A stretch of 64,000 nucleotides of DNA, taken from Patescibacteria group bacterium (lineage in GTDB: Bacteria > Patescibacteriota > Microgenomatia > UBA10105 > UBA927). The translations under genes were made by a program, and so were the position numbers. This document shows positions 2,773-64,000 of this stretch, one piece after another. The stretch's first letter is position 1; every line of letters begins with the position of its first letter. The stretch covers positions 131,715-195,714 of the forward strand of contig JBBTWJ010000005.1 in assembly GCA_038062895.1 (NCBI GenBank). The letters are read 5' to 3'. The notes under the pieces were generated by a model that worked only from the letters and a program-made list of their open reading frames with translations, did not search any database and was not told the DNA's origin.

Positions 2773-3519
2773 ATGACCGTTATCACAAGGGGGGAGTCGG
2801 TACAAAAGAGGACAGAACGAGCATCACAAGTGGTTTCACTCCTAAAAATATTCTATCCGAAGGCACAGATCGTTCTTCGATACACAAATTTCTGGGAACT
2901 ATTGGTTTCTGTTATTTTATCCGCTCAATGCACGGATGTGATGGTCAATAAGGTGACAGAAAGACTGTTTAAAAAATATCCAGCCTTTGGGGATTATCTG
3001 AAGGCTGATACTAAGGAGTTTGAACAGGATATTAAATCGACCGGCTTTTATCATAATAAAGCGAAGAATATCTTAGCCGCGGCAAAGCTCATTCAAGAAA
3101 AATTTAAAGGCGAGATACCCAGGACAATGGATGAAATGCTGACGATCCCGGGGGTGGCACGGAAAACTGCCAACGTGGTGTTGGGCAATGCGTATGGAAT
3201 TGTGGAGGGGATAGCGGTCGATACCCACGTCCTTCGTTTGAGCCAACGGTTGCGGTTGGTGGACCTGGAAAAGATTGGTGGAAAAAAGAAATTGCATTTC
3301 ACAAGGCCAGGACTTGCAGACACCAATGAGTTTATTGATTATAAAAAAGACGCCGATCCGGTGAAGATTGAGACGCAACTGATGGAGGTATTGCCAAGAG
3401 AAGATTGGTTCAACACTACCTATCTCCTCATAGATCATGGCCGTGCTGTGTGCAAAGCACAGAGTCCAAACTGCAGCCACTGCGTGCTCCAAAAGTTTTG
3501 CCCCTCCTCGCGGATTTGA
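2773..3519 (+). CDS. nth: endonuclease III (DNA glycosylase/AP lyase), with an internal insertion
   Basis: HhH-GPD core with the catalytic Lys region 'LxxIPGVARKTANVVL'. C-terminal 4Fe-4S ligands 'CKAQSPNCSHCVLQKFC' (C-x6-C-x2-C-x5-C). Confidence 0.85.
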   Translation: MTVITRGESVQKRTERASQVVSLLKIFYPKAQIVLRYTNFWELLVSVILSAQCTDVMVNKVTERLFKKYPAFGDYLKADTKEFEQDIKSTGFYHNKAKNILAAAKLIQEKFKGEIPRTMDEMLTIPGVARKTANVVLGNAYGIVEGIAVDTHVLRLSQRLRLVDLEKIGGKKKLHFTRPGLADTNEFIDYKKDADPVKIETQLMEVLPREDWFNTTYLLIDHGRAVCKAQSPNCSHCVLQKFCPSSRI

Positions 3520-4717: not shown

Positions 4718-5764
4718 ATGAAAACCTGGCAGAAGTTAAAAGCGAACCCGGAACTTTGGGAACGGTACTTCGTCCGCGAAAAGGTCATCAAGGCGATCCG
4801 GCTATTTTTTGAAACGCAGAAGTTTCATGAAGTAGAGACACCGACCCTCATGGCTCACCCGCCTGCGGAATCGTATTTGGACGTTTTCCAAATGACGCTT
4901 CTAGACCGCAATCGAAAGGGGATCTCCGCCTACCTTTCCACGTCTCCGGAAGTAGCATTAAAAAAACTCATGACGGCTGGTTTGGGAAATTGCTACGCGC
5001 TTACCAAAAGTTTCCGCAACATGGAAACACAAGGAAATCTTCATAATCCAGAATTTACTATCCTCGAATTTTACCGTGTGGGAGCCACGTACCTTGACAT
5101 TATGAGGGACATCGAATCGCTGATGGTGTTTATCGCGCAGTCGGTACACAAGGATTCACTGGTCGTCACGTATCAAGGAACATCAATTGATCTCACGCCT
5201 CCATGGGAACGGCTATCGGTCGCCCAGGCATTTGAGAAATACGCTCATGTGGATTTCGAGAAATTTTTGGATGAGAAACAAGCGCGTGAAATTGCTAAAG
5301 AAAAAGGATATGCCGTTGAAGCGAATACAACCTGGGAACAACTCTATAACCAAATTCTTCTTAATGAAATTGAACCTTACCTGGGGCAGGGGAGGCCTAC
5401 GATTCTGTATGACTTCCCGTCTTCCATGGCGGCGTTGTCCAAGAAAAAAACGAGCGATCCGCGGTTTGCCGAGCGGTTTGAATTCTACATCGCAGGGCTC
5501 GAGCTCGGCGACTGCTATAGCGAGCTTACCGATTGGAAAGAGCAAGAAGTGAGGTTTGAGCGAGAGCTTAGCGAGCTGAGACGATTAGGTAAGACAGTTT
5601 ACGACTATGATCACGATTTTATCGAAGCTCTGAAAGTTGGACTACCGGATTGCAGCGGGATCGCCGTCGGCGTTGATCGGCTCATTATGCTCCTTAGTGA
5701 CGTCACCGATATCGCCGATACGCTTTTTTTTCCGGCCGGGGAGATGTTTACGTTTTCAACGTAG
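4718..5764 (+). CDS. epmA: EF-P--(R)-beta-lysine ligase (class II lysyl-tRNA synthetase paralog, GenX/PoxA)
   Basis: Class II aaRS catalytic core without an anticodon-binding domain. Motif 2 'FRNMETQGNLHNPEFTILEFY' and motif 3 'IEALKVGLPDCSGIAVGVDRLIMLL' closely match EpmA. Confidence 0.7.
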   Translation: MKTWQKLKANPELWERYFVREKVIKAIRLFFETQKFHEVETPTLMAHPPAESYLDVFQMTLLDRNRKGISAYLSTSPEVALKKLMTAGLGNCYALTKSFRNMETQGNLHNPEFTILEFYRVGATYLDIMRDIESLMVFIAQSVHKDSLVVTYQGTSIDLTPPWERLSVAQAFEKYAHVDFEKFLDEKQAREIAKEKGYAVEANTTWEQLYNQILLNEIEPYLGQGRPTILYDFPSSMAALSKKKTSDPRFAERFEFYIAGLELGDCYSELTDWKEQEVRFERELSELRRLGKTVYDYDHDFIEALKVGLPDCSGIAVGVDRLIMLLSDVTDIADTLFFPAGEMFTFST

Positions 5765-6947
5765 AGAGAGCGATCGTTTTTCGAAGCAACAATGCGAGGG
5801 CAAGCGGCAGGACGGGGAGGATATACAGCCAGTTTTTTGCCAGTTGAATTTCATTCCCGAACTGCAGAAAGATAAATAGTCCGATGAAACTTACGGTCCG
5901 GAATATTCCCAACACAATATCGCGTTCAAGAAGTAGGTGATATTTTTGCTGCCAACTTCCTTGGGCTTGGTCCAGCACGCCAAAGTAGACGATCGACAGT
6001 TTATTGTTAAATATCGGAACGGTGAGTCCGGAAATAATAATATACGCCCAGATCCCTAGCGGCGATTGATAAAATGCAAACACAATGATCGAGAGGGCAG
6101 ATCCAGCGACACCGATCCAATAAGCAGATGGGAACTTTGTGAGAAGCGGGATAGCATAGAGATTGGACACGATTGCAATCGTCGAAAATATCGTGAGCAC
6201 GAATCCCAGATCCGCTTCATTTTTCACTATGACGAAAAATAACACGCCCGTCACGGTGCCGAGGGCAATATCAAATAAACCCAGTACTGCATTTTGTCCC
6301 AGGATGAGTTTCCAACTGCGTGTCCGTTGATGGTCCAAGATGTGATGGTATGAAAAATCCAGTGATTCATGCGCGGGGAGTTTGCCGATGACAAAGATCG
6401 TGATGATATTGATGATGGCGACCAGAAAAAATAACAGGAGATAGCCGTTTGTAACACCGAGCGATGTTTTACCGACGGTGGTGATAATCAGTCCTCCGAT
6501 TGCCGGACCCATGGCGTTGGCAAGATTAAACACTGCCCCAGCCCACCCAAAATATGAGACCCGTCTTCCGGAATGGGCGAGAATATATTGATTGAGATTA
6601 TACGAAGCCCAAAAAAACCCACCGGAAAAACCGGAGAGAATGCCCAACGGGAAGACAAAGGCGATGCTTTGGTCTTTGAGAAAAAATAAGAGAAGATAAA
6701 ATATTGATCCGGCGACGAGACTCATTTTCATCATGGTACCGGAAGAGATATGCCGGAGTGCCCAACCGGACGCCCCATAGAAAAACGTCATGGAGGCAAA
6801 TGCCGCGATATTATAAAGCGTCGTGACCTTGAGATCTCCATGGGAAAAGAAAAAAACCGTGACGAAAATATTGGCCAGAGATCCGGCCAGGATATCTAAG
6901 CCCTGGATGAGAAGGAGCTTCCGTTCGTCGGGGGATAAATTCTTCAT
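5748..6947 (-). CDS. MFS-type transporter (12 predicted TM helices)
   Basis: Regularly spaced hydrophobic helices with Gly-rich loops typical of the major facilitator superfamily. Overlaps the epmA end by 17 bp in convergent orientation. Confidence 0.6.
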   Translation of the reverse strand: MKNLSPDERKLLLIQGLDILAGSLANIFVTVFFFSHGDLKVTTLYNIAAFASMTFFYGASGWALRHISSGTMMKMSLVAGSIFYLLLFFLKDQSIAFVFPLGILSGFSGGFFWASYNLNQYILAHSGRRVSYFGWAGAVFNLANAMGPAIGGLIITTVGKTSLGVTNGYLLLFFLVAIINIITIFVIGKLPAHESLDFSYHHILDHQRTRSWKLILGQNAVLGLFDIALGTVTGVLFFVIVKNEADLGFVLTIFSTIAIVSNLYAIPLLTKFPSAYWIGVAGSALSIIVFAFYQSPLGIWAYIIISGLTVPIFNNKLSIVYFGVLDQAQGSWQQKYHLLLERDIVLGIFRTVSFIGLFIFLQFGNEIQLAKNWLYILPVLPLALALLLRKTIALSTLKT

Positions 6948-20449: not shown

Positions 20450-21049
20450 ATGAACATATCATTGGTCACCGTATTATTTGCTTTATTTTTTAGTTTTGCT
20501 TCGCTATCACCTTCCTTCGCTATAACGACACCCACAAAAACGACAGTATCAAACCCTGTGGTCGAAGCCATAAAAGTACCTGCGGAAAAAACCGATGGAG
20601 GTATGGAAAAAAAGCAGGAATACCTGCTCCCATTCCCGGGAATTCTTCCGGATCATCCGCTCTATTTCCTCAAACAAGTGCGCGATGGAATCATGGATCG
20701 GCTCATCGTAGACCCTTTGCGTAAGGCAGAGTTTCATGTGCTTCAGGCGGACAAGAGACTCAACATGGGCAAGGTATTGGTAGAGCAGAAAAAAGAGAAG
20801 CTCGCCGAAGAAGTGATCTCTAAAGGGGAAAAATATTTGGAGCGCGCGGTGAGCGGGCTTATGGCTTACAAATCTTTAGGCCGGCCGGTGCCGGCAAGTA
20901 TCATCGATAAACTAACGCGCTCTCTGGAAAAGCACGTGGAGGTGTTGACGGACCTCGTCGCCAAAACTTCCGGTACTGTCCAGTCGGGATTGACCGGGTC
21001 GCTGGACTTCGTCAAGAAATTACAAGGGGAAGTGGAGAAACTGAAATAA
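20450..21049 (+). CDS. secreted hypothetical protein (signal peptide plus helical domain)
   Basis: N-terminal signal peptide 'LVTVLFALFFSFASLSPSFA'. RBS GGAGGA 7 nt upstream. Confidence 0.5.
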   Translation: MNISLVTVLFALFFSFASLSPSFAITTPTKTTVSNPVVEAIKVPAEKTDGGMEKKQEYLLPFPGILPDHPLYFLKQVRDGIMDRLIVDPLRKAEFHVLQADKRLNMGKVLVEQKKEKLAEEVISKGEKYLERAVSGLMAYKSLGRPVPASIIDKLTRSLEKHVEVLTDLVAKTSGTVQSGLTGSLDFVKKLQGEVEKLK

Positions 21050-21286
21050 AAGTACGGGAGGTACGAAAAGTACGAGATGTACGGGAGGAACAGGGAAAGA
21101 GACAAGCGGATTATTATCCACAATATATGAATAGTTCTGAATCATTGAACACAATTAATACATATATCGCTGGTCACTCGTTTTTTGTCTCCTGTCGCTT
21201 GCATTAAACCCCGTACTTTTTCCTCAATTCTTGGCGGCCGAGGCTAGCAAAAATGATTGACTGTATTTGATCTAGAAATGACTAGT

Positions 21287-21315
21287 TGACGGGGCGCGGA
21301 AACCTTCATATAGTG
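21287..21315 (+). promoter_or_regulatory. sigma70-like promoter TTGACG-N17-TATAGT upstream of nrdR
   Basis: Near-consensus -35 and -10 hexamers with 17-bp spacing, about 150 bp upstream of nrdR. Confidence 0.45.
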
Positions 21316-21372
21316 GTCTAACATTGGTGTTCGCTCCACAGGTAGTGTTTTTTGTTTCACGGTGTGGCGCGC

Positions 21373-21449
21373 GATTAGCACTTGATAAAAGATACATGAT
21401 GAGCACATGATCACGAGCTGATCACGTTGGTTTCCATCACGTGCTCATC
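21373..21449. promoter_or_regulatory. array of GATKAGCACWTGAT motifs: two direct copies (21373, 21398) and one inverted copy (21436)
   Basis: GATTAGCACTTGAT, GATGAGCACATGAT and the inverted ATCACGTGCTCATC, lying between the promoter and the nrdR ATG. The same motif recurs at 51608, 51631 and 52044-52520. Confidence 0.6.
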
Positions 21450-21465
21450 GCGCGCTTTCGCGCGC

Positions 21466-21912
21466 ATGAAGTGTCCATACTGCAATCACGAAGAAACAGA
21501 GGTTTTGGAGACGCGCGACAGCGAGGATTTAGCCGTGACACGCCGCCGCCGAACGTGTACCAAGTGCGAGAAACGGTTTACGACGTACGAACGGCTTGAA
21601 TCCGTGCCCATTACGGTCATCAAGAAAGACGAACGGCGAGAAACATTTGACCGGGAGAAGCTCAAGCGCGGGATTGTGCATTCAAGCGGAAAGACAACGG
21701 TAAAAGCTGAAGACATTGATCGAATCGTTGATGAGGTGGAGCGCGAGCTTATCGGCGGGGAAAGCGTGGAGGTCACCAGCAAAAAGATAGGGGAGCTCGT
21801 CGCTAAGAGATTGAAAAAATTAGATAAGGTGGCGTATATACGCTTTGCAAGCGTGTTTCGAAGCTTTGTGGATGTGGAGGATTTTGAGCGGGAAGTGAAA
21901 AAATTGCTCTGA
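21466..21912 (+). CDS. nrdR: transcriptional repressor NrdR
   Basis: N-terminal zinc ribbon 'CPYCNHEETEVLETR...RRRTCTKCEKRF' and an ATP-cone domain. The ORF-track start is a TTG, and the ATG is at 21466. Confidence 0.9.
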   Translation: MKCPYCNHEETEVLETRDSEDLAVTRRRRTCTKCEKRFTTYERLESVPITVIKKDERRETFDREKLKRGIVHSSGKTTVKAEDIDRIVDEVERELIGGESVEVTSKKIGELVAKRLKKLDKVAYIRFASVFRSFVDVEDFEREVKKLL

Positions 21913-21951: not shown

Positions 21952-24471
21952 ATGGATCTCACCGGCATCAGACAAAAAGTATTCTTAGACCGTTACGCGC
22001 TCAAGGACGAAGCGGGTAACCCTACCGAAAAAACGCCGGAGGAGATGTGGCGCCGGGTCGCCCATGCCATAGCCCAAGTGGAACCTAAAAAACAGCGTGA
22101 GCAGTGGGAGAACAAATTTTATCAGGCGATGGATAATTTCGTCCTGGTGCCCGGGGGACGGATCCTTTCGGGTGCCGGAACGGGGTATAAAGTCACCTAT
22201 TATAATTGTTTCGTAATCCCGAGCCCCCATGACTCGCGGCAGGGAATCCTCAACACTCTTTCACAAATGGTAGAAATCATGTCCCGCGGCGGCGGGGTTG
22301 GGATCAATCTCTCGAGTTTGCGTCCCAGAGGTGCGCGCGTACAGAAGGTCAACGGATTCTCGTCCGGCCCCTGCAACTGGGCGGAACTTTTCAGTGTCGC
22401 GACCCGCGACATCATTCAACAAGGGGGAAGCCGGAGGGGCGCTCTCATGCTCATGCTCTGGGATTGGCATCCGGATGTCGAGGAGTTTATCACCGTGAAA
22501 CAGGACCTCGCGCGCATTAATGGCGCAAACCTCTCTGTGTGTGTCTCGGACGCGTTCATGGAAGCGGTGAAAAAGGACGCGGATTGGGATCTCGTATTTC
22601 CCGACAAAAGTGATCCCGAGTATGACGAGAAATGGGATGGCTATCTTCCTAACTGGCTAAAGCTTGGCAAGAAAGTCATCGTTCAAAAAACAATAAAAGC
22701 CCGTGCATTATGGGACCTCGTTGCACAAGCCGCATGGAAGTCTGCAGAGCCCGGGGTTGTTTTTATGGAGCGTAATAATAAATGGTTTAATAATTATTAT
22801 TGGGAATATGTCAATTGTGTTAATCCCTGCGGTGAAGAACCGCTGCCGAATTATGGGGTCTGCAATCTCACATCCATTAATTTGTCTGCATTAGTCAATG
22901 AACAAGGCGATATGGATTATATGCGGCTCTCCGAGGTGGCCAAGACAGGCGTACGATTCCAGGATGATGTGATTGATGCTGATGTATACATATTCCCTGA
23001 GATAAAAAAACGACAAGTTGAAGGCGAACGTCGGATTGGCTTGGGGACTATGGGGCTAGGGGACGCGCTCATCAAAATGAAGCTCCGATACGGATCAAAA
23101 GAAAGTCTCGCGGTGATTGATAAGATTTATCAAACCATCCGGGACGCTGCCTACGAATCCTCTGTGGAAGTGGCGGCCGAAAAAGGCGCGTTTCCGGCAA
23201 TCGATATAAAGAAGCATCTGGAGGGATATTTCGTCAAACAACTTCCCGAAGAAATCAAAAAGAAAATAAAAAAGCATGGCGTGCGAAACTCGGTCATCCT
23301 GCAACAGGCGCCGACAGGGAGTACATCCCTCATGGTGGGAGTGAGCTCCGGCATAGAGCCGGTGTATGAGTTTGAGTTTCTGCGCCACGACCGTTTAGGT
23401 GAACACATCATCCGCCACCCATTATATGATGCGTGGGTTTCTCAATTTATCGCAACGAATAGACGAGAACCGAATAAAGCAGACCGGCCGGATTATTTTG
23501 TGTCCGCAAACGACTTGACCCCCGAGGACCACGTCTATGTCCAGGCTGCAATACAGAAACATGTCGACGCTTCGATCAGCAAGACAGTCAACGCCCCGAA
23601 GACCCATACGGTTGAGGACGTGAAGCGGCTGTATACACTCGCTTATGAATTAGGGTGCAAGGGAATCGCGTACATGCGGGAGGGGAGCAGGCAGGGAGTG
23701 CTCGAGCGGATAGAGGAAGCGAAACCCACGGTTGAGGGAAAACCAGATGAGGTGAAAGTAGCCGGTCAGTATGTGCCGGAGGTCAAGCCCCGGCCGATGG
23801 TCGTCCACGGATCGACCTACCAAGTGGAGACGCCGGTCGGACAAGCGTATGTGACCATCAATACCAATGGAGGCCGCCAGCCGCTTGAGCTTTTTATGAA
23901 CATCGGGAAGGCAGGGAGCGATGTCACCGCGATGGCGGAAGCTATGGGTCGGCTGATTTCTCTCATTTTCCGAATTGCCTCACCGGTTTCCCCAATCGAA
24001 CGCGCACACAAAGTAGCGGCAGAGCTTATCGGTATCGGGGGAGCGCGTTCTCTCGGGTTTGGGGAAAACCGGGTGCGGAGTTTGCCGGATGCCGTCGCGA
24101 AAGTCATTGACCGGCATTTTGGATTTTTTACCAAGCATAAGTTGACCGATGTCCCGCAACCTGCAGCAGGAGGCGACGTGATGGCGTCACACGAAACAAA
24201 CGGAAATGGTTCGACTCCGTTCACCACAGGTGGTGCTGCCATGACGACAACTTTAATGAATGGAGCCACCAATGGAAATGGTCATATGACGGAATTAAAA
24301 ACGGACAACAATGATGATAAAGAGCAGACAGTGGACGCGGCATCCTACCAGCGGGCGGTAGCCCAAGAGCGGGTGGTGACGGTCGATCTTTGCCCGAGCT
24401 GTGGCGAGGGGAGTCTGGTATTTGAGGAAAGTTGTAAGAAATGCTACTCGTGCGGATATTCGGAATGCTAA
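21952..24471 (+). CDS. nrdJ: adenosylcobalamin-dependent ribonucleotide reductase (class II, NrdJ)
   Basis: Class II RNR catalytic barrel with Cys-containing 'NPCGEEPL' and a C-terminal zinc-ribbon tail 'CPSCGEGSLVFEESCKKCYSCGYSEC'. Lies 39 bp after nrdR. Confidence 0.9.
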   Translation: MDLTGIRQKVFLDRYALKDEAGNPTEKTPEEMWRRVAHAIAQVEPKKQREQWENKFYQAMDNFVLVPGGRILSGAGTGYKVTYYNCFVIPSPHDSRQGILNTLSQMVEIMSRGGGVGINLSSLRPRGARVQKVNGFSSGPCNWAELFSVATRDIIQQGGSRRGALMLMLWDWHPDVEEFITVKQDLARINGANLSVCVSDAFMEAVKKDADWDLVFPDKSDPEYDEKWDGYLPNWLKLGKKVIVQKTIKARALWDLVAQAAWKSAEPGVVFMERNNKWFNNYYWEYVNCVNPCGEEPLPNYGVCNLTSINLSALVNEQGDMDYMRLSEVAKTGVRFQDDVIDADVYIFPEIKKRQVEGERRIGLGTMGLGDALIKMKLRYGSKESLAVIDKIYQTIRDAAYESSVEVAAEKGAFPAIDIKKHLEGYFVKQLPEEIKKKIKKHGVRNSVILQQAPTGSTSLMVGVSSGIEPVYEFEFLRHDRLGEHIIRHPLYDAWVSQFIATNRREPNKADRPDYFVSANDLTPEDHVYVQAAIQKHVDASISKTVNAPKTHTVEDVKRLYTLAYELGCKGIAYMREGSRQGVLERIEEAKPTVEGKPDEVKVAGQYVPEVKPRPMVVHGSTYQVETPVGQAYVTINTNGGRQPLELFMNIGKAGSDVTAMAEAMGRLISLIFRIASPVSPIERAHKVAAELIGIGGARSLGFGENRVRSLPDAVAKVIDRHFGFFTKHKLTDVPQPAAGGDVMASHETNGNGSTPFTTGGAAMTTTLMNGATNGNGHMTELKTDNNDDKEQTVDAASYQRAVAQERVVTVDLCPSCGEGSLVFEESCKKCYSCGYSEC

Positions 24472-25193: not shown

Positions 25194-25227
25194 GCGAGTA
25201 AAGCGAGTCGAAGGATCTTAAAAATAC

Positions 25228-25363
25228 AGATATCAGGGGAATCGTGGTGTGAATCCACGGCTGTGCCGCAACTGTAAAGCCAGAAAACCTGAATCGTAGA
25301 CCGTCTCTCGAGCAAGGGGAATTTTTTTGGTGTAGCCCTCTTGATTATGAGAGGGCTTTTATT
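25228..25363 (+). ncRNA. cobalamin (B12) riboswitch-like leader with an intrinsic terminator expression platform
   Basis: AGGGGAA...GGUGUGAAUCC...GCUG...CCGCAACUGUAA (B12-box variant GCAACUG)...AAGCCAGAAAACCUG matches the cobalamin riboswitch core. Terminator GCCCUCU-loop-AGAGGGC followed by UUUUAUU directly abuts the GNAT ATG. Confidence 0.5.
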
Positions 25364-27746: not shown

Positions 27747-28172
27747 ATGGATGGCCTACCAACCCCGCCGATGGCGGGGAATAACCCAATAAATACCAAT
27801 AATCCAATAATCCAATCAGGAAATATTTCTGTTGGGAAGGAGTTGGAGTCAGGTGTGGTGGTGAAAGAAGAGCCGGGGCTCAAGGATGTATCGGGACAGG
27901 AAATAGAGCTACCCCGCGAAGTGGCGGCAGCCGGAGTGTCTAACCAACCGACGACGGTGCAACTCCCGCAGCCGGTCTCACAAATGGGGGTAAAAGTAGT
28001 CGGGGATGCAGTGGTGCCGGCAGCGCCGCCGGTGGCGCTTCCTTTGACTGATGATCAGATTGCATTGGGACTCAAACAAAGTGTAACCACCTCTTGGCGG
28101 TGGCTCGCAGAATTCTGCGTACGGAAATTGAAACAACTACACAAAACATTAGTCAAAAGTCCAAAAGTCTAA
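27747..28172 (+). CDS. hypothetical protein (Pro/Val-rich)
   Basis: 141-codon ORF between the basic protein and the ATPase. The N-terminus is encoded by the CCAATAATCCAAT repeat. Confidence 0.3.
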   Translation: MDGLPTPPMAGNNPINTNNPIIQSGNISVGKELESGVVVKEEPGLKDVSGQEIELPREVAAAGVSNQPTTVQLPQPVSQMGVKVVGDAVVPAAPPVALPLTDDQIALGLKQSVTTSWRWLAEFCVRKLKQLHKTLVKSPKV

Positions 28173-33471: not shown

Positions 33472-33480
33472 CCTGTTGGC

Positions 33481-33523
33481 AATTATCCAATTATCCAATT
33501 TCAAATAATCCAATAATCCAATG
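33481..33523. repeat. (TTATCCAA)n / (TAATCCAA)n 8-bp tandem repeat
   Basis: aattatccaattatccaatttcaaataatccaataatccaat. Same family as 27781, 54487, 63915 and the related 63283. Confidence 0.8.
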
Positions 33524-49684: not shown

Positions 49685-51619
49685 ATGGCGGAGAAACATC
49701 CAATTGTCAAAAAAAACGGCTCGCCTCAATTCGGCGGAGCGAGGAAAAATGGGAATGGGAACGGCAAGCACGGGAAAAAGGTGTGGGAGTTTGGATTTCA
49801 GTTTAACGTCAAAAATATTTTCATTGGGCTTTTCATTGCCTTCATCGTATTTAGCCTCTTGGGAAGCCTCGGGGATAAAGTGAGCACCCTTGTCGAAAAG
49901 CCGCTCTCAACGGTCATCACCGACGTGAAAGAAGGGAAAATAGACAAGATTGAGATAGAAGAAAGCCGGCTCACCGTGAGCTATAAAGACGGTACAAAAT
50001 TTATCTCCCATAAAGAACCGCAAGAATCACTCCTAAAAGTCTTTGAAGGCGCCGGGGTTGACCCCAAAGCCGTCGAGATAAAAGTAAAAGACTTGTCTCC
50101 GGGCCAACTATGGATGGGGATTATCTCCAACGTGTTGCCACTCGTCCTCACCGTCGTATTTTTTCTTTTCCTTTTCCGTCAGGCACGGGGAGCGCAGGAC
50201 AATATTTTTTCCTTCGGACAAAGTAAGTCGCGGATATTCGCCAAAGATTTACCCAAAGTAACGTTTGCCGATGTGGCAGGGGTGGATGAAGCCAAGAAGG
50301 AACTCGAAGAGGTCGTCGACTTTCTCAAAAACCCCGCCAAATACAAAGCGTTGGGGGCGCGGACTCCCAAGGGGGTTATATTAGTTGGTCCATCCGGAAC
50401 GGGAAAGACGCTTCTTGCCAAAGCCATGGCTGGCGAGGCACATACCGCGTTTTACAGTGTGGCCGGAAGCGAGTTTATGGAAATGCTTGTGGGGATTGGA
50501 GCCGCGCGCGTCCGTGACCTTTTTGCCCAGGCCAAGAAAAATGCGCCGTCGATCATCTTCATCGATGAGATCGACGCAATCGGCAGGATGCGATCGGTCG
50601 GGCTTATGGGCGGGCATGATGAACGCGAGCAGACCCTCAACCAAATCCTGGTGGAAATGGATGGATTTGAGCCCAATACCGCGGTGCTCATTGTGGCGGC
50701 CACCAACCGCGGGGATTTACTCGACCCGGCACTTCTTCGGCCCGGACGGTTTGACCGGCGGGTGGTCCTGGATCTTCCGGACATGGCGGGACGCAAAGAC
50801 ATCCTCGCCATCCACGCCAAGGGCAAACCCTTCGCGGTAACGGTGGAGTGGGACAAAGTATCCAAGCGTACGGTAGGCTTCTCGGGCGCAGATATGGAGA
50901 ACATGCTCAATGAAGCGGCGATCCTGGCCGCCCGCGAGGATAAAAAAGAGATCGACATGAAAGACATCGAGGAGGCGGCAACAAAAGTAAAATTGGGGCC
51001 GGAGAAGAAACGGCTGCAGTCAGACTTGGATCGCAAAATGACGGCGTACCACGAGGCTGGTCACGCGGTCGTCAATTATTACTCTCCCAATCTCGATCCC
51101 GTGCACCGCGTGTCCATCGTCTCGCGTGGGATGGCTTTGGGATACACCATGGCGCCTCCGGAGAAGGACCGGCTGCATGAGACCAAGTCCCGGCTTATCG
51201 ACGAAATCGCCATGACGATGGGGGGACGGGCTGCCGAAAAGTTAATATTTAATGAAATGACCAGTGGGGCAGCCAACGACATCGACCAAGCGACCAGAAT
51301 CGCCCGGTACATGGTGATGGAGTTTGGGATGAGCGACCTGGGGCCTATCAATTTCGGCCCGCAGATGGACATAACCGAGTGGGGCAAGCAGTACATGGAG
51401 CAAAATACCGTGTCCCAGGACATGCAGGGCAAGATCGACGTGGAAGTGAAGAAGCTCCTGGATGAAGGGTATAGGAAAGCCGCCGAGCTTCTGAAAAAGT
51501 ATAAAAAGAAGCTTGATCTCGTTGCCGAAGAGTTAATCAAAAAAGAGACGCTGGAAGGAGAAGAATTCCAAGTAGTCATGGGTGGGCTTAAGCACCGAAG
51601 TAGCACGATGAGCACTTGA
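49685..51619 (+). CDS. ftsH: ATP-dependent zinc metalloprotease FtsH
   Basis: Two N-terminal TM helices. AAA+ Walker A 'GPSGTGKT', Walker B 'IIFIDEID', SRH. Zinc-binding 'HEAGHA'. Confidence 0.9.
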
Positions 51620-51644
51620 TGGATGAACTTGATTAGCACATGAT
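51608..51644. promoter_or_regulatory. pair of GATKAGCACWTGAT motifs (GATGAGCACTTGAT, GATTAGCACATGAT) overlapping the ftsH stop
   Basis: Same motif family as 21373-21449. The first copy encodes the last ftsH codons and contains its TGA. TAGAAT -10-like hexamer downstream. Confidence 0.55.
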
Positions 51645-51650
51645 AGAATT

Positions 51651-52040
51651 ATGCCTCGGCCGATAAAGAGCCCAACTGTTTATGAAGAGCTAACATATAA
51701 GATAATAGGTTTGGGGTTTGATGTTCAAAAAGAACTCGGGAATATTCATAAAGAGGTTGTATATCAAAAAGCTCTTGAAATAGCGTTAAAAAACAACCAG
51801 ATTCCGTACGAACGAGAGAAAAGATTGACGGTCGAGTTTCAAGAAAAAAATGTTGGGGTATATATACCTGACTTCGTCATTGACAATAAAGTCATTGTTG
51901 AAATAAAAGCAATGGAAATGCTTCCTTATAAAGCCTCTGTTCAGTTAAGTTATTATCTAAAAACAACCGGATACCGCGTGGGGATATTATTAAATTTCGG
52001 CTCTCGTAGACTTCAGGTGAGGAGACGGATTTATGGATAA
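51651..52040 (+). CDS. GxxExxY-family protein (PD-(D/E)xK nuclease-like)
   Basis: About 125 aa with 'GYRVGILLNFG' and the 'PDFVIDNKVIVEIKA' PD-ExK core. Confidence 0.5.
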   Translation: MPRPIKSPTVYEELTYKIIGLGFDVQKELGNIHKEVVYQKALEIALKNNQIPYEREKRLTVEFQEKNVGVYIPDFVIDNKVIVEIKAMEMLPYKASVQLSYYLKTTGYRVGILLNFGSRRLQVRRRIYG

Positions 52041-53166
52041 TTCAAGTGCTCATCATGTTTCTCCATCATGTGCCAATCGTTTGGTTTTAATCGACGGCAA
52101 TGCAATACTGCACCGCGCGTATCATGCGCTGCCACCCTTAACGACTCCAGATGGAACCGTCGTTAACGCGGTCTACGGATTTGTCTCCATCCTCATCAAA
52201 ATCTTCAATGATTTGAAACCCACCCATATGGCGGTTGCCTTTGACCGCGCAGCGCCGACGTTTCGCAAAAAACTTTATAAAGAATATCAGGCGAGTCGGC
52301 CGAAGATGGAGGATGCGCTTGTGGGGCAAATAAGCATTGTCCATGATGTGGTGGCGGCATTCGGGATACCTAATTTTGAGTTAGACGGGTATGAAGCGGA
52401 TGACGTGATCGGGACACTCGTCAAACGAGTGTATGATGAGCGCGTGATGCAGAAACCACATGATGAGCACATGATGGAGAAATCACGTGCCGATCATGTA
52501 TCCCGATCAAGTGCTCATCAATCACCGGAGGTGATCATCGTGACGGGGGATAAGGATATATTGCAGCTCGTGGATGACAAAAGGGGCGTGAAAGTGTTCA
52601 TGCCGACGAAGGGATTGTCTGAGGGGAAGCTCTATGGGGAGGCGGAAGTGGTTGAGCGGCTGGGGGTGACCCCTAGCCAGATACCGGAGCTCAAAGCGCT
52701 CATGGGAGACAGCTCCGACAATTACCCGGGAGTGGCGGGGATCGGGCCGAAGACGGCGGTTGATTTGATTACGAGATATGAAAATATTGACACTATATAT
52801 AGGACAATAAACAGTAAACAAAAAGCAGGAAAAGGGGGGAAAGGGGAGAGGGGGAGCGGGAGAGTGGGAGATGGGGAGAAAATATCCCTTGGGGTGAGAG
52901 AAAAATTGGTTAAGGGGGAGGAGATGGCGAGGATGTCTAAAGATTTGGCGACGATACGCGTAGATGTGCCGGTAGTGATGGAACCGCTTGAGCCGATTGA
53001 AACACTGGATACGGAAGAAGCTCGAAAAATACTGCAAGCACTTCATTTTCCGTCGCTCCTCAAGAGACTGACCGGGATTGATGATGGGAAGAGGGGGAGA
53101 CCCTCCTTCGTCCCGCCCGGCGGGACTACGGCGGGCGAGGCGGGGGAGCAGCAGGAGTTGTTTTGA
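52033..53166 (+). CDS. 5'-3' exonuclease (Pol I N-terminal/FEN-like domain only) with in-frame low-complexity insertions
   Basis: 'LVLIDGNAILHRAYHALP', 'GYEADDVIGTL', 'VTGDKDILQLV' and an HhH2 region. Insertions are encoded by the GATGAGCAC motif array (52432-52545) and a GGGGA-rich repeat (52820-52900). Confidence 0.75.
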   Translation: MDNSSAHHVSPSCANRLVLIDGNAILHRAYHALPPLTTPDGTVVNAVYGFVSILIKIFNDLKPTHMAVAFDRAAPTFRKKLYKEYQASRPKMEDALVGQISIVHDVVAAFGIPNFELDGYEADDVIGTLVKRVYDERVMQKPHDEHMMEKSRADHVSRSSAHQSPEVIIVTGDKDILQLVDDKRGVKVFMPTKGLSEGKLYGEAEVVERLGVTPSQIPELKALMGDSSDNYPGVAGIGPKTAVDLITRYENIDTIYRTINSKQKAGKGGKGERGSGRVGDGEKISLGVREKLVKGEEMARMSKDLATIRVDVPVVMEPLEPIETLDTEEARKILQALHFPSLLKRLTGIDDGKRGRPSFVPPGGTTAGEAGEQQELF

Positions 53167-53739: not shown

Positions 53740-53898
53740 ATGAAAATCGCATTGGTACATGATTTTTTACGGGAGTACGGGGGAGCGGAAAGGGTTGTGG
53801 AAACCTTGCCTCGACACAACGCTTACTTACTCGCAAGGGCTACGTCCTTGCCTCGCAAGAGCGCGTGTACGGGGCTGCGGTTTCATAACGTTATATGA
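53740..53898 (+). pseudogene. upstream ORF that duplicates the first 23 codons of the downstream glycosyltransferase, then diverges; its stop overlaps the GT start (ATGA)
   Basis: MKIALVHDFLREYGGAERVVETL is identical in both copies, but 13/23 codons differ synonymously. Lies 86 bp upstream of the GT gene. Confidence 0.45.
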
Positions 53899-55076
53899 AG
53901 ATAGCTTTAGTTCATGACTTTCTTAGAGAATACGGTGGTGCTGAAAGGGTTGTCGAAACCTTGCATGAAATGTGGCCGGAGGCGCCGCTTTATACGTCGT
54001 TTGTGGATTGGGGAAATTTGGGGGATCAGGGGTATAGGTTCAAAAATTGGGATATACGGACGAGCTGGGTGCAGCAGTTTTGGTTCATCAAAAAATTTAT
54101 TTCGCCCCTCCGGTTTCTCGCTCCTTGGATCTGGGGGAGCTTTGATCTCTCCGGGTATGACGTGGTCATTTCAAGTTCGGGTTGGTTTATTTGTCGTGGC
54201 GTTCGAATGGGAGATCCTTCGACTCGCTCCGCTCGCTCAGGACGTGCTCTGCACGTTTGCTACATCCATCATCCTCCGAGGAATCTGTATGGGTATGCGA
54301 CGGGCAGTGATCTGCAGAAGTACTGGATCGTGCGCGTGTATGCGGCAATCGTGAACTTCTTTCTCCGGCACTACGACTATGAAACGGCGCAGAAGGTGGA
54401 CTACTTCATTGCTAATTCTCAGGAGACGAAACGGAGGGTGTTGAAATTCTATAGACGTGATGCTGCCGTTATCTATCCTCCAATTGAATTATCCAATTAT
54501 CCAATTATCCAATTATCCAATAATCCAATAAAAATTCATAAGAAATACTATTTATCTGTTGGGCGGCTCACGTACAGTAAGCGGGTGGATATCGCAATTG
54601 CGGCGTGCAAAAAACTTGGATTGCCGCTCATGATCGTCGGAACGGGCAAAGAAGAGGAATCGTTGAAAAAACTAGCTTCGCAAGGCCTGGCCTTGCGAAG
54701 CTGTGGTATTGAGTTTTTGGGGAGTGTAAACGACGAGGAACTGTCTCGGCTCTACGCGGGGGCCAAGGCGCTTATCTTTTGTGCGCTGGATGAGGACTTC
54801 GGGATGGTACCGGTAGAGGCCATGGCCCATGGGACGCCCGTCATCGCTCTGGCTCAAGGTGGAGTGGTGGAGACGGTGGTGGACGGGAAAACTGGCATTC
54901 TTTTTCACGAGGTGACAGTGGAGAGCTTGATAAAAGCGTTGGGGAGATTTAGGGGATTAGGGGGATTTGGGGAAATGGGGGAAAATTGTATAAAACAAGC
55001 CGAGAAGTTTGGCAAAGAGCGGTTTAAGAAGGAATTGTTGGCGTTTATAAATACCCAGAGGTTTAAAGCTAATTAA
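53895..55076 (+). CDS. glycosyltransferase family 4 (GT-B fold)
   Basis: C-terminal 'EDFGMVPVEAMAHGTPVIA' EX7E-type motif. N-terminal GT4 domain. In-frame insertions encoded by the 8-bp repeat and by the 29-bp palindrome. Confidence 0.8.
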   Translation: MKIALVHDFLREYGGAERVVETLHEMWPEAPLYTSFVDWGNLGDQGYRFKNWDIRTSWVQQFWFIKKFISPLRFLAPWIWGSFDLSGYDVVISSSGWFICRGVRMGDPSTRSARSGRALHVCYIHHPPRNLYGYATGSDLQKYWIVRVYAAIVNFFLRHYDYETAQKVDYFIANSQETKRRVLKFYRRDAAVIYPPIELSNYPIIQLSNNPIKIHKKYYLSVGRLTYSKRVDIAIAACKKLGLPLMIVGTGKEEESLKKLASQGLALRSCGIEFLGSVNDEELSRLYAGAKALIFCALDEDFGMVPVEAMAHGTPVIALAQGGVVETVVDGKTGILFHEVTVESLIKALGRFRGLGGFGEMGENCIKQAEKFGKERFKKELLAFINTQRFKAN

Positions 55077-63067: not shown

Positions 63068-64000
63068 TGCTTCAGAGTATCGTACTCCAAAACTTCCGAA
63101 GTTATAGTAAAAAAACGTTTGCGTTTTCTCCTACAACGACCGTCATTGTGGGTCCCAATACGGCCGGAAAAACAAATATTCTCGAGGCGATTGCGTTTCT
63201 TGCGACAGGGAAAAGTTTTCGGGCAGACCAGGATAGAGAGGCGATTAGGTGGGGGGAAGAGCTTGCGCGAGTACGCGCAAGAATTTCCAATTTCCAATTT
63301 CCAATTTCCAATGAAGAAAAAGATAAAGAAGAGCTAGAGATAGTTATTACGCAGGGGGAGGTGCAGGGGGCGAGGGCATCAGCCTTGACCGCCGTCAGGC
63401 GAGGCTGGCCGATGAAGAAATATCTGGTCAATGGAGTGGCGCGGCGGATGGTCGATTTTGTGGGAAATCTGCGGGCCGTTCTTTTTTGGCCGGAACATCT
63501 GGAGCTCGTCACCGATAGTCCGTCCATCCGACGGAAGTACCTCGACAGCGTCCTCGTCCAAGTAGACCGCGAATACCGGAGAAACCTCTCTTCCTACGAG
63601 CGGGGCCTGCGGCAGAGGAATCGGCTCCTTGACCTCATCAATGAAGGGAAGGCAGGGCGGGGGCAGCTTTTGTTTTGGAATCAGCTCCTGATTAAAGCAG
63701 GAGGGTATATCACCCAGAAGAGGGAAGAGTACATTCACTTCGTGAATCAATATCCAATGACCCTGCCTCGCCGGCAGGCAGGTAATGCCCAATATCAAAT
63801 TGAATATGATAAGAGTGTGATATCGGAGAGCCGGCTGGAGCAGTATAAGGATGAGGAGGTGGGGGCCAAAGCGACACTCGTTGGGCCGCACCGCGATGAT
63901 TTCATCATCGCGAAATATCCAATTATCCAATTATCTCCCGCGAAGCGGGATCTCGCTCCGCGAGACAATAATCCAAACGAAGCCAATAGGTCACGCGAGT
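63064..64000 (+). CDS. recF: DNA replication and repair protein RecF (3'-truncated by the window end), with in-frame repeat insertions
   Basis: Not in the ORF track because it has no stop in the window. Reads 'MMLQSIVLQNFRSYS...VIVGPNTAGKTNILEAIAFLATGKSFR' (Walker A) and 'GPHRDD'. Contains the TTTCCAAT and TTATCCAA repeats in-frame. Confidence 0.8.
   Translation, partial: MMLQSIVLQNFRSYSKKTFAFSPTTTVIVGPNTAGKTNILEAIAFLATGKSFRADQDREAIRWGEELARVRARISNFQFPISNEEKDKEELEIVITQGEVQGARASALTAVRRGWPMKKYLVNGVARRMVDFVGNLRAVLFWPEHLELVTDSPSIRRKYLDSVLVQVDREYRRNLSSYERGLRQRNRLLDLINEGKAGRGQLLFWNQLLIKAGGYITQKREEYIHFVNQYPMTLPRRQAGNAQYQIEYDKSVISESRLEQYKDEEVGAKATLVGPHRDDFIIAKYPIIQLSPAKRDLAPRDNNPNEANRSRE

Follow-up and report, generated by a model that had tools for sequence, protein, structure and literature searches.

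Introduction

The described systems that come closest to the repeat family considered here are REPs and the REPIN/RAYT systems, MITEs, the Rickettsia palindromic elements (RPEs), and the homing endonucleases and inteins. REPs are short imperfect palindromes with a GTAG or CGTC head (PMC3733652). The features of the REPIN/RAYT system that are used here for comparison are those given by Bertels & Rainey (PMC3337134). RPEs are palindromic repeats that lie in frame in housekeeping genes, where they are translated as a tolerated extra peptide (PMC10969869). With respect to the enzyme that is central to this work, a census of PD-(D/E)XK proteins lists its family, PF13366, as 'unknown' and records multiple transfers between divisions (PMC3424549).

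What, then, is the 14-nucleotide motif that recurs in the 64-kb stretch of DNA analysed here (the window), and how is it related to the small nuclease gene that it brackets? Small palindromic elements of a lineage-specific family are built from repeats of this 14-mer; their host is a Gottesmanbacteria-like Patescibacterium, its position close to Gottesmanbacteria being that suggested by its sequence. The window contains one element with gene cargo and two that are cargo-less, and the best reading, one that we consider probable, is that of a REPIN/RAYT-like or MITE-like system that has a PD-(D/E)XK nuclease, GxxExxY, as its partner.

The 14-mer motif

Within the 64-kb window there are six exact matches to GATKAGCACWTGAT where 0.01 are expected from dinucleotide-preserving shuffles, and ten matches where 1.4 are expected when up to two mismatches are allowed. 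Every one of the latter falls in one of three places, namely the nrdR leader, the ftsH/exonuclease junction and the exonuclease interior:

21373(+), 21398(+), 21436(-): 14-mers of the nrdR leader
51607(+), 51631(+): 14-mers at the ftsH end
52041(-), 52065(-): 14-mers at the exonuclease start
52435(+), 52462(+), 52506(-): 14-mers of the exonuclease interior

Two further, degenerate 14-mers with three mismatches each are located at 21410-21423(-) and 52482-52495(-). A profile HMM of the half-element, consisting of two 14-mers and their spacer, detects six half-elements and no more within the 64 kb (E <= 3e-9), the next match being at E = 0.6. Same-strand 14-mers are spaced 23-27 nt apart from start to start, with a mode of 24, and 100 distinct instances from the window and related genomes give the unit consensus G-A-T-d-A-G-C-A-C-n-T-G-A-T between uninformative flanks. 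The unit GATGAGCACATGAT is without self-complementarity and has neither a GTAG nor a CGTC head. In the forward direction the motif holds TGA in two frames as well as ATG, leaving one frame open, which reads as a His/Asp/Ser-rich peptide of the DEHM.../...SSAHQ type.

The motif family had been proposed in the initial annotation of this DNA, the coordinates of which prove right to within 1-3 nt. All of the sites that it named carry copies; the two 3-mismatch copies had been overlooked, and with their addition the nrdR and exonuclease sites each become symmetric, with two direct and two inverted copies. Its gene identities (NrdR, NrdJ, FtsH, GxxExxY/PDDEXK_3 and the 5'-3' exonuclease) are confirmed by profile matches. 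That chance, low-complexity similarity or an assembly artefact lies behind the family has a practically negligible probability; all that can be said in its favour is that the motif is short. It is refuted by the enrichment and by the recurrence of the elements in independent NCBI, JGI, ENA and Logan assemblies, and the exact exonuclease and NrdR proteins are also present on several contigs.

A scan of genome contigs additionally returned matches that were discarded as distinct from the present family, being either isolated motifs within conserved genes or tandem repeats of 11 nt. These are from Prevotella/Prevotellaceae (L005, L008, L009, L011, L014, L016, L024, L029, L031, L033, L035 and L041), Bacteroidales (L036), Leadbetterella (L043, L044), Planotetraspora (L015), Moraxella (L030) and Chloroflexi (L034).

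Anatomy and folding of the elements

A complete element opens with a direct pair of 14-mers spaced by about 24 nt, after which comes an inverted pair; it is 76-87 bp long and has sharply defined ends (GAT.AGCAC ... GTGCT.ATC). Conservation and complementarity are both confined to the 14-mers, the spacers showing neither. As single strands the cargo-less elements form hairpins in which the 14-mers pair and the spacers become internal loops, with z-scores from -2.6 to -6.5. At gathering thresholds Rfam gives no match on the elements, the only matches being to three tRNAs and an AdoCbl riboswitch, and a known RNA family is thereby discarded as their identity. A search for target-site duplications across 11 element flanks revealed no consistent duplication, and the flanks of the nrdR insert offer only a doubtful TTTC or a degenerate 9-mer.

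Several Patescibacteria MAGs contain dispersed cargo-less elements of 76-87 bp, and four of these MAGs also have a motif-flanked GxxExxY gene between ftsH and the exonuclease. In these other genomes the elements adjoin unrelated genes, mostly as fillers of short gene-boundary spacers. They often provide the stop codon of the upstream gene, as with ftsH in the window and in L012, L021 and L038 elsewhere, and they end 5-16 nt upstream of the next start codon. Owing to the TGA in two frames and the ATG of the forward motif, an element can end one gene and directly precede the next.

The insertion in the nrdR leader

The first of the two cargo-less elements of the window lies between the promoter and the coding sequence of nrdR:

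21286..21314, + strand: nrdR promoter TTGACG-17-TATAGT, a host part upstream of the insert, with columns invariant in five relatives
21359..21465, no strand: lineage-only segment of ~107 nt between TTTC and the nrdR ATG, from the empty-site alignment with L085-L089
21373..21449, no strand: cargo-less element A, 77 bp, two direct and two inverted 14-mers
21373-21386(+) and 21398-21411(+): direct copies (M) of element A
21410-21423(-, 3 mismatches) and 21436-21449(-): inverted copies (M') of element A
21466..21912, + strand: nrdR, a host gene whose leader holds element A (TIGR00244 at 1.8e-52)

The segment of ~107 nt is composed of ACGGTGTGGCGCGC, the 77-nt element and GCGCGCTTTCGCGCGC. Element A folds as DNA at -22.1 kcal/mol (z = -4.1), and GCGCGC on either side lengthens the hairpin to 21367-21455. 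The exact NrdR protein of the window is also known as P0241.

The empty site is seen in five contigs (L085-L089) that share the gene order DUF5667-nrdR-nrdJ and encode an NrdR with 90-99% identity to that of the window. In all five the promoter TTGACG-17-TATAGT and conserved upstream blocks are retained and the motif-bearing segment is absent. The clearest cases are L087, L088 and L089, where ...GTGTTT.A..TTTC runs straight into the nrdR ATG; in L085 and L086 there is only a short duplication ahead of it. The insert is thus polymorphic among near relatives, from which it follows that the motif here represents a recent insertion and not an operator for NrdR or LexA.

An operator had been the proposal of the initial annotation, and in its general form it would have the 14-mers bound by NrdR, a LexA-like repressor or another factor that governs replication and repair genes as one regulon. 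Such a role fits the copies that separate nrdR from its promoter and those that adjoin the exonuclease and nuclease genes, and the pairing of sites at a constant 24-27 nt has the look of an operator. The operator is nevertheless very improbable: the five relatives that keep the promoter and upstream blocks have no such site ahead of nrdR, four copies lie within coding sequence for which orthologues are polymorphic, and copies in other genomes sit at boundaries of unrelated genes. The NrdR box is reportedly a 16-bp palindrome of the acaCwAtATaTwGtgt type, as Rodionov and Gelfand are said to have described in 2005. The 14-mer is no palindrome of this type and does not fit this consensus, a scan with which, at up to three mismatches, gave no site near nrdR; together with the empty nrdR site this leads to rejection of the operator. 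The suggested link to DNA-metabolism genes likewise falls away, as it stems from three insertion sites, two of them adjacent, and the neighbours elsewhere are unrelated. What survives is the fallback offered alongside the operator, a small mobile repeat, for which the polymorphic nrdR insert and the presence or absence of the exonuclease insert at a single loop both speak.

The ftsH-exonuclease cassette and the insert within the exonuclease

The second and third elements lie close together, one of them split by a gene:

49685..51619, + strand: ftsH, a host gene, whose last four codons and TGA stop (51617-51619) are within the first 14-mer of the cassette
51607-52078: cassette, the third element copy, split by the GxxExxY gene
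51607..51644, + strand: left arm of the cassette, direct 14-mer pair 51607-51620 and 51631-51644
51651..52040, + strand: GxxExxY / PDDEXK_3 gene, 129 aa, cargo of the cassette and proposed cognate nuclease
52041..52078, - strand: right arm of the cassette, inverted 14-mer pair 52041-52054 and 52065-52078
52033..53166, + strand: stand-alone 5'-3' exonuclease, a host gene whose start codon overlaps the GxxExxY stop (ATGGATAA)
52435..52519, no strand: cargo-less element D, 85 bp, in frame in the exonuclease, adding ~30 aa at one loop
52435(+) and 52462(+): direct copies (M) of element D
52482-52495(-, 3 mismatches) and 52506-52519(-): inverted copies (M') of element D

The copies at the ftsH end and at the exonuclease start are present as first noted, but they are not separate sites: together they form a 39-nt inverted repeat, 79% complementary, whose arms bracket the 390-bp GxxExxY gene. 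The cassette and the cargo-less elements have termini of an identical type. The nuclease gene, listed at first as a neighbour of a motif pair, does adjoin that pair and is more than a neighbour, being the cargo of one element. The cassette provides both the stop codon of ftsH and the start codon of the exonuclease, the right arm being read as an N-terminal extension of the latter, SSAHHVSPSCAN, with the first 15 residues largely translated arm. In L093, L094 and L098, the nearest relatives, which lack the cassette at this junction, the ftsH stop is followed by a spacer of 7-42 nt and then by ATGAATAGG (MNRLVLIDGN), and FtsH of cassette-less relatives ends ...KHRSSANTL*. In the window, therefore, the cassette takes the place of the spacer between the two genes and of the native exonuclease ATG.

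Within the exonuclease, element D (DNA fold z = -3.6) divides the Pfam N-terminal domain into two stretches. The in-frame translation originally given for its copies, DERVMQKPHDEHMMEKSRADHVSRSSAHQSPE, is correct, and the alignment of orthologues that had been suggested as a check confirms a 30-aa insertion at one loop. Of 24 aligned orthologues about nine have the insert and eight lack it, precisely at this loop; others have unrelated inserts in its place, and in sister lineages an unrelated repeat occupies the loop. L098 retains the exonuclease-internal element intact, though its ftsH-exonuclease junction is without a GxxExxY gene. Either the gene lies elsewhere in that genome, or the elements outlive it.

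The GxxExxY nuclease

The cargo protein matches PF13366 at 2.9e-32 (111.9 bits for a curated cut-off of 22) and TIGR04256 at 1.4e-31 (109.3 bits for a curated cut-off of 35), which are its sole Pfam and NCBIfam matches. The residues E35, D74, E84 and K86, corresponding to the helix-1 Glu, PD and ExK, are invariant in 35 homologue sequences and intact in the window protein. An AF2 model (pLDDT 92) has the PD-(D/E)XK fold, the nearest solved folds being Cas4 SSO0001 in first place and lambda exonuclease, MGME1 and restriction-endonuclease-like structures, all of them distant; the catalytic domain of I-Bth0305I is among the weak matches. A search by sequence found no solved structure. The PADLOC search for defence systems returned only a marginal Cas4b match (E = 0.004), and no homologue was found in a phage collection. 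In a plasmid collection the cassette was without a DNA-level match and the protein had six distant matches, of which three were inspected.

The dN/dS of GxxExxY is 0.08-0.21 where computable, and the protein is under purifying selection. For the pair of window and L001 dN is 0.10, and synonymous changes have reached saturation, so that no NG86 dS can be computed. Some GxxExxY forms are longer, at ~155 aa. Translated-repeat N-terminal tails were considered for these and rejected, as what makes them longer is a NRQWLFVPDWLK tail conserved at the C-terminus. A scan of reading frames of at least 50 aa identifies a single GxxExxY gene in the 64-kb window.

Pairing of nuclease and motif across relatives

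The order ftsH-GxxExxY-exonuclease recurs in species whose GxxExxY proteins are 57-84% identical, and at nearly all of these loci the gene is preceded by a direct motif pair and followed by an inverted one; the exception is L059/L060, where the motif is upstream only. Between the window and L001 the flanking 14-mers differ by 0-1 nt despite the saturation of synonymous sites, which indicates that the motif is maintained. When GxxExxY identity falls to 41-64% the layout of forward array, gene and reverse array persists with other motifs:

GATCAACAC.TGAT: L046, L051, L052
GATTAGCGC.AGAT: L063, L064
GGATGTACACGGAT: L065
TTACGCAGACT: L074-L081
ACGGATT arrays: Chloroflexota L090; L091, L092; Treponema and Fusobacteria plasmid records
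CACAGAGGA: Bacteroides finegoldii

Qualitatively, many of these motifs have a loose shared core of C(A/G)C, 1-2 nt and GA(T/C/G).

Cargo-less copies use the motif variant of the nuclease lineage on their own contig. For instance, the exonuclease-internal element of L052 (6800-6884) is built of GATCAACAC units, and L074 has a separate cargo-less ACGCAGACT element at 5610-5730. The cassette itself is found in several contexts, namely between ftsH and the exonuclease gene, between ligA and rodA, beside a giant cell-surface protein, and in frame inside rtcB. The last of these is L075, where the Pfam RtcB domain is in two stretches with PDDEXK_3 between them.

The association was measured as the best inverted-repeat score between 110-nt flanks, for 27 GxxExxY genes and 206 control genes from the same loci. 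Of the GxxExxY genes, 21 lie above the 99th percentile of the controls (Mann-Whitney p = 9e-12) and six at or below it. Repeats are visible in L090 and L091, and more weakly in L046, L069 and L082, further out or at lower scores; L059 has arrays on its upstream side, and around the GxxExxY gene of L070 no arrays were found. From the sequences GxxExxY seems to be the element's own enzyme. In the lineage of the window it is single-copy with a position between ftsH and the exonuclease that is conserved across species, and the gene of that lineage may have ceased moving.

Could the nuclease be a mere passenger? An ordinary MITE- or REP-like family might be moved by an unrelated transposase, with GxxExxY either carried along or a selfish gene in its own right, prone to landing in palindromic repeats or to being captured by them. 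Strand transfer is not known for PD-(D/E)XK hydrolases, GxxExxY is single-copy and syntenic across species, and in L098 an element is present without the gene at the ftsH-exonuclease junction; moreover, the view of the genome is one of 64 kb, and a transposase could lie elsewhere. This explanation must contend with the scan of the window, which finds one GxxExxY gene, with flanking inverted repeats at 21 of 27 such genes compared with ~1% of controls, and with a motif variant that follows the nuclease lineage. It would need different repeat families, in numerous lineages and phyla, to have captured the passenger independently and in one and the same polarity, and we regard it as unlikely.

Proposed mechanism and significance

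In the reading that we prefer, a repeat system partnered by its PD-(D/E)XK nuclease, GxxExxY would recognise arrays of the 14-mer, and we infer that it binds or cuts them. The cargo-less copies would be non-autonomous derivatives, maintained or mobilised in trans by GxxExxY, which would stand to them as a transposon stands to its MITEs or a single-copy RAYT to REPINs. Insertions would survive where they are harmless, and in the sole open frame an element would be translated as a tolerated His/Asp/Ser-rich loop. To our knowledge no strand-transfer or joining activity has been described for 129-aa PD-(D/E)XK hydrolases, and GxxExxY alone therefore cannot explain transposition to non-homologous sites. 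Candidate routes by which copies may move are break-repair copying, hairpin or cruciform processing, and the help of host enzymes.

The pairing would also be compatible with a benefit to the host. The hairpin might act at the level of RNA or DNA, as an mRNA stabiliser, in processing or translational coupling, or as a nucleoid or topology site, with GxxExxY a domesticated partner in binding or processing and with selection, in place of continuing transposition, keeping the copies. Consistent with this, the 14-mers are conserved far past neutral expectation, between species and even within the exonuclease, the stability of the hairpins is significant, and the elements lie precisely in short spacers, 5-16 nt ahead of starts, or provide stops. 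RAYT/REPIN systems have been discussed in like terms (PMC3337134). The nrdR copy, however, is new in the window lineage and close relatives do without it, the unrelated repeat at the same exonuclease loop in sister lineages looks like turnover, and no Rfam family matches. A host-beneficial role is judged to be decidedly unlikely; it differs from the preferred reading only in who benefits.

A broader proposal, advanced tentatively and with rather less than even confidence, is that GxxExxY/PF13366 proteins act in trans as the partners of repeat elements that occur across bacterial phyla and form a class not recognised before, each lineage having its own motif of 7-14 nt, as a PD-(D/E)XK counterpart of RAYT/REPIN. 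The phyla behind this proposal are represented by Patescibacteria and Chloroflexota MAGs and by Bacteroides, Treponema and Fusobacteria plasmid records. The gene would have forward arrays ahead of it and reverse arrays behind it, with a motif specific to the nuclease lineage, and cargo-less palindromic copies, maintained or mobilised by the nuclease, would settle at gene boundaries and also, in frame, within essential genes (exonuclease, RtcB).

The searchable literature yielded no description of a GxxExxY nuclease paired with cognate repeat arrays and cargo-less derivatives. Searches for GxxExxY, PDDEXK_3, PF13366 and TIGR04256 gave incidental mentions, none of them on repeats, and those for PDDEXK with terminal inverted repeats or mobile DNA gave no description of an association. 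If the pairing is true, the large family PF13366/TIGR04256, 'unknown' in the PD-(D/E)XK census (PMC3424549), would acquire a testable function, and a second, mechanistically different long-term partnership of repeat and enzyme would stand beside REPINs and RAYTs. The covariation of nuclease lineage and motif offers natural specificity-swap pairs for biochemistry. The genomes of Patescibacteria are tiny and streamlined. In them repeats, whether selfish or co-opted, alter the ends, the 5' leaders and the encoded protein loops of the essential genes ftsH, nrdR, the 5'-3' exonuclease and rtcB. For annotation, His/Asp/Ser-rich 'extensions' and loops in such proteins are to be read as translated repeats and not as lineage-specific domains.

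Comparison with known systems

The system belongs neither with REP/RAYT nor with classical MITEs or IS elements, because features that define each of them were looked for and are absent from it. With free-standing or nested PD-(D/E)XK homing endonuclease genes, such as those of I-Ssp6803I and I-Bth0305I, and with inteins it shares a small PD-(D/E)XK ORF between or inside housekeeping genes, and the whole L075 cassette is in frame in rtcB. It differs in that there is no intron or intein splicing module, in that repeat arrays of its own lie on both sides of the nuclease, and in that the cargo-less copies occupy non-homologous sites, a distribution that homing by itself does not generate.

RPEs resemble the family in being translated in frame, as are the 30-aa loop of the exonuclease, the N-terminal extension of that protein, the C-terminal extension of FtsH and the rtcB insert of L075. 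Compared by their description, RPEs are ~150 bp long, are elements of Rickettsia, to which the phylum of the present host is unrelated, and have no associated enzyme gene, whereas the present family is built of defined 14-mer sub-units and comes with a candidate partner gene.

As in MITEs (reviewed in PMC10969869), cargo-less copies of 76-87 bp have the termini of a longer, gene-bearing copy, there is presence/absence polymorphism among close relatives, and the sites are at gene boundaries and sometimes within genes. Unlike in MITEs, no consistent target-site duplication was detected (11 flanks and the nrdR site), the terminus is an array of two 14-mers and not one continuous inverted repeat, and the gene-bearing 'parent' has a PD-(D/E)XK hydrolase as cargo in place of a known transposase family.

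With REPIN/RAYT systems the differences are that the partner is a PD-(D/E)XK protein (PF13366) and not an HUH/Y1 transposase of the IS200/IS605-like type, that the unit is a non-palindromic 14-mer in direct pairs where REPs are GTAG- or CGTC-headed palindromes, and that copies also occur in frame within coding sequences. The likeness lies in short repeats that are dispersed as inverted, hairpin-capable doublets, here as units of 76-87 bp; in a small cognate gene that is itself repeat-flanked; in that gene being single-copy (here in the 64-kb window) and vertically inherited at a fixed locus; and in each gene lineage having its own repeat type, with the gene under purifying selection.

Repeats in the exonuclease loop of relatives and in the window

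In L093 and L094, relatives in which the junction between ftsH and the 5'-3' exonuclease gene is without the GxxExxY nuclease cassette, the exonuclease loop that carries a 14-mer element in the window is occupied by another direct pair, AAATCCCAAGCAC, with a spacing of 25 nt, and in L094 this pair is found again 2.2 kb downstream of the loop copy. The pair looks like a further repeat family, with a spacing like that of the 14-mer family. Within the nearest relatives the spacer between ftsH and the exonuclease gene is rich in AATCAAC/CCAATCAAC in place of the cassette, and the exonuclease of one of these, L098, retains an intact 14-mer element, the copies of which have 0, 1, 2 and 2 mismatches.

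Repeats in cassette-less relatives
L093 5363-5400: AAATCCCAAGCAC direct pair
L094 10363-10400 and 12582-12619: AAATCCCAAGCAC direct pairs
L098 1120-1165 and 1529-1613, L093 4955-4990: AATCAAC/CCAATCAAC-rich spacer at the ftsH–exonuclease junction and L098 exonuclease element

The window itself contains a second repeat family, which is composed of 8-nt ATCCAAT(T/A) units in tandem arrays. A pattern scan of the window with CCAATWATCCAAT returned 11 matches against 0.38 expected, and one array lies in frame within the glycosyltransferase gene at 53895-55076, where it is translated as SNYPIIQLSNNPI.

ATCCAAT(T/A) arrays in the window
27796-27816
33479-33522
54485-54529
63919-63931

The nrdR–nrdJ region

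Alignment A4, which covers the region upstream of nrdR in five relatives without the leader insert (L085-L089), reveals that in L085 and L086 the start region is duplicated over a short length at about 2990-3015 (ATGAAATGTT TACACTGAACGAAT GTGAAGTGTCC), exactly where the window has the insert; this duplication could be a footprint or could have arisen independently. Immediately 3' of the DUF5667 gene, at 21049-21090 of the window, GTACG recurs every ~10-11 nt (AAGTACGGGAGGTACGAAAAGTACGAGATGTACGGGAGG), a stretch that is missing in the aligned relatives.

The nrdJ gene of L085 and L086 (from 3462) contains an intein, represented by Intein_splicing and LAGLIDADG_3, and has a length of 1154 aa with the gene cut by the locus end. 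That of L087 is similar in length (1157 aa) and has no Pfam hits on record. The window nrdJ (21952-24471) measures 839 aa and is free of an intein. An AdoCbl-II riboswitch (25220-25298, 44.2 bits) lies ~750 nt downstream of this B12-dependent gene.

Cassette and element in other genomes

The rtcB gene of L075 (contig 28% GC; 4876-6804) is interrupted in frame by a GxxExxY cassette that has ACGCAGACT arrays, and rtcB contains a second array, cargo-less and also in frame, ~150 aa upstream of the cassette. A subfamily of GxxExxY, the ~155-aa forms (proteins P0148-P0240), has a C-terminal tail that is conserved (...RRVFPP...NRQWLFVPDWLK); the 129-aa window protein is without this tail.

The 14-mer elements are also present in MAGs that bear the title 'uncultured Gammaproteobacteria', among them CAYIWI01 and CAZLDC01 (loci L006, L010, L012, L013, L023, L026, L027 and L039), and CAYIWI01 (L039) has in addition the ftsH–GxxExxY–exonuclease synteny. 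The taxonomic label of these element-bearing MAGs is probably wrong.
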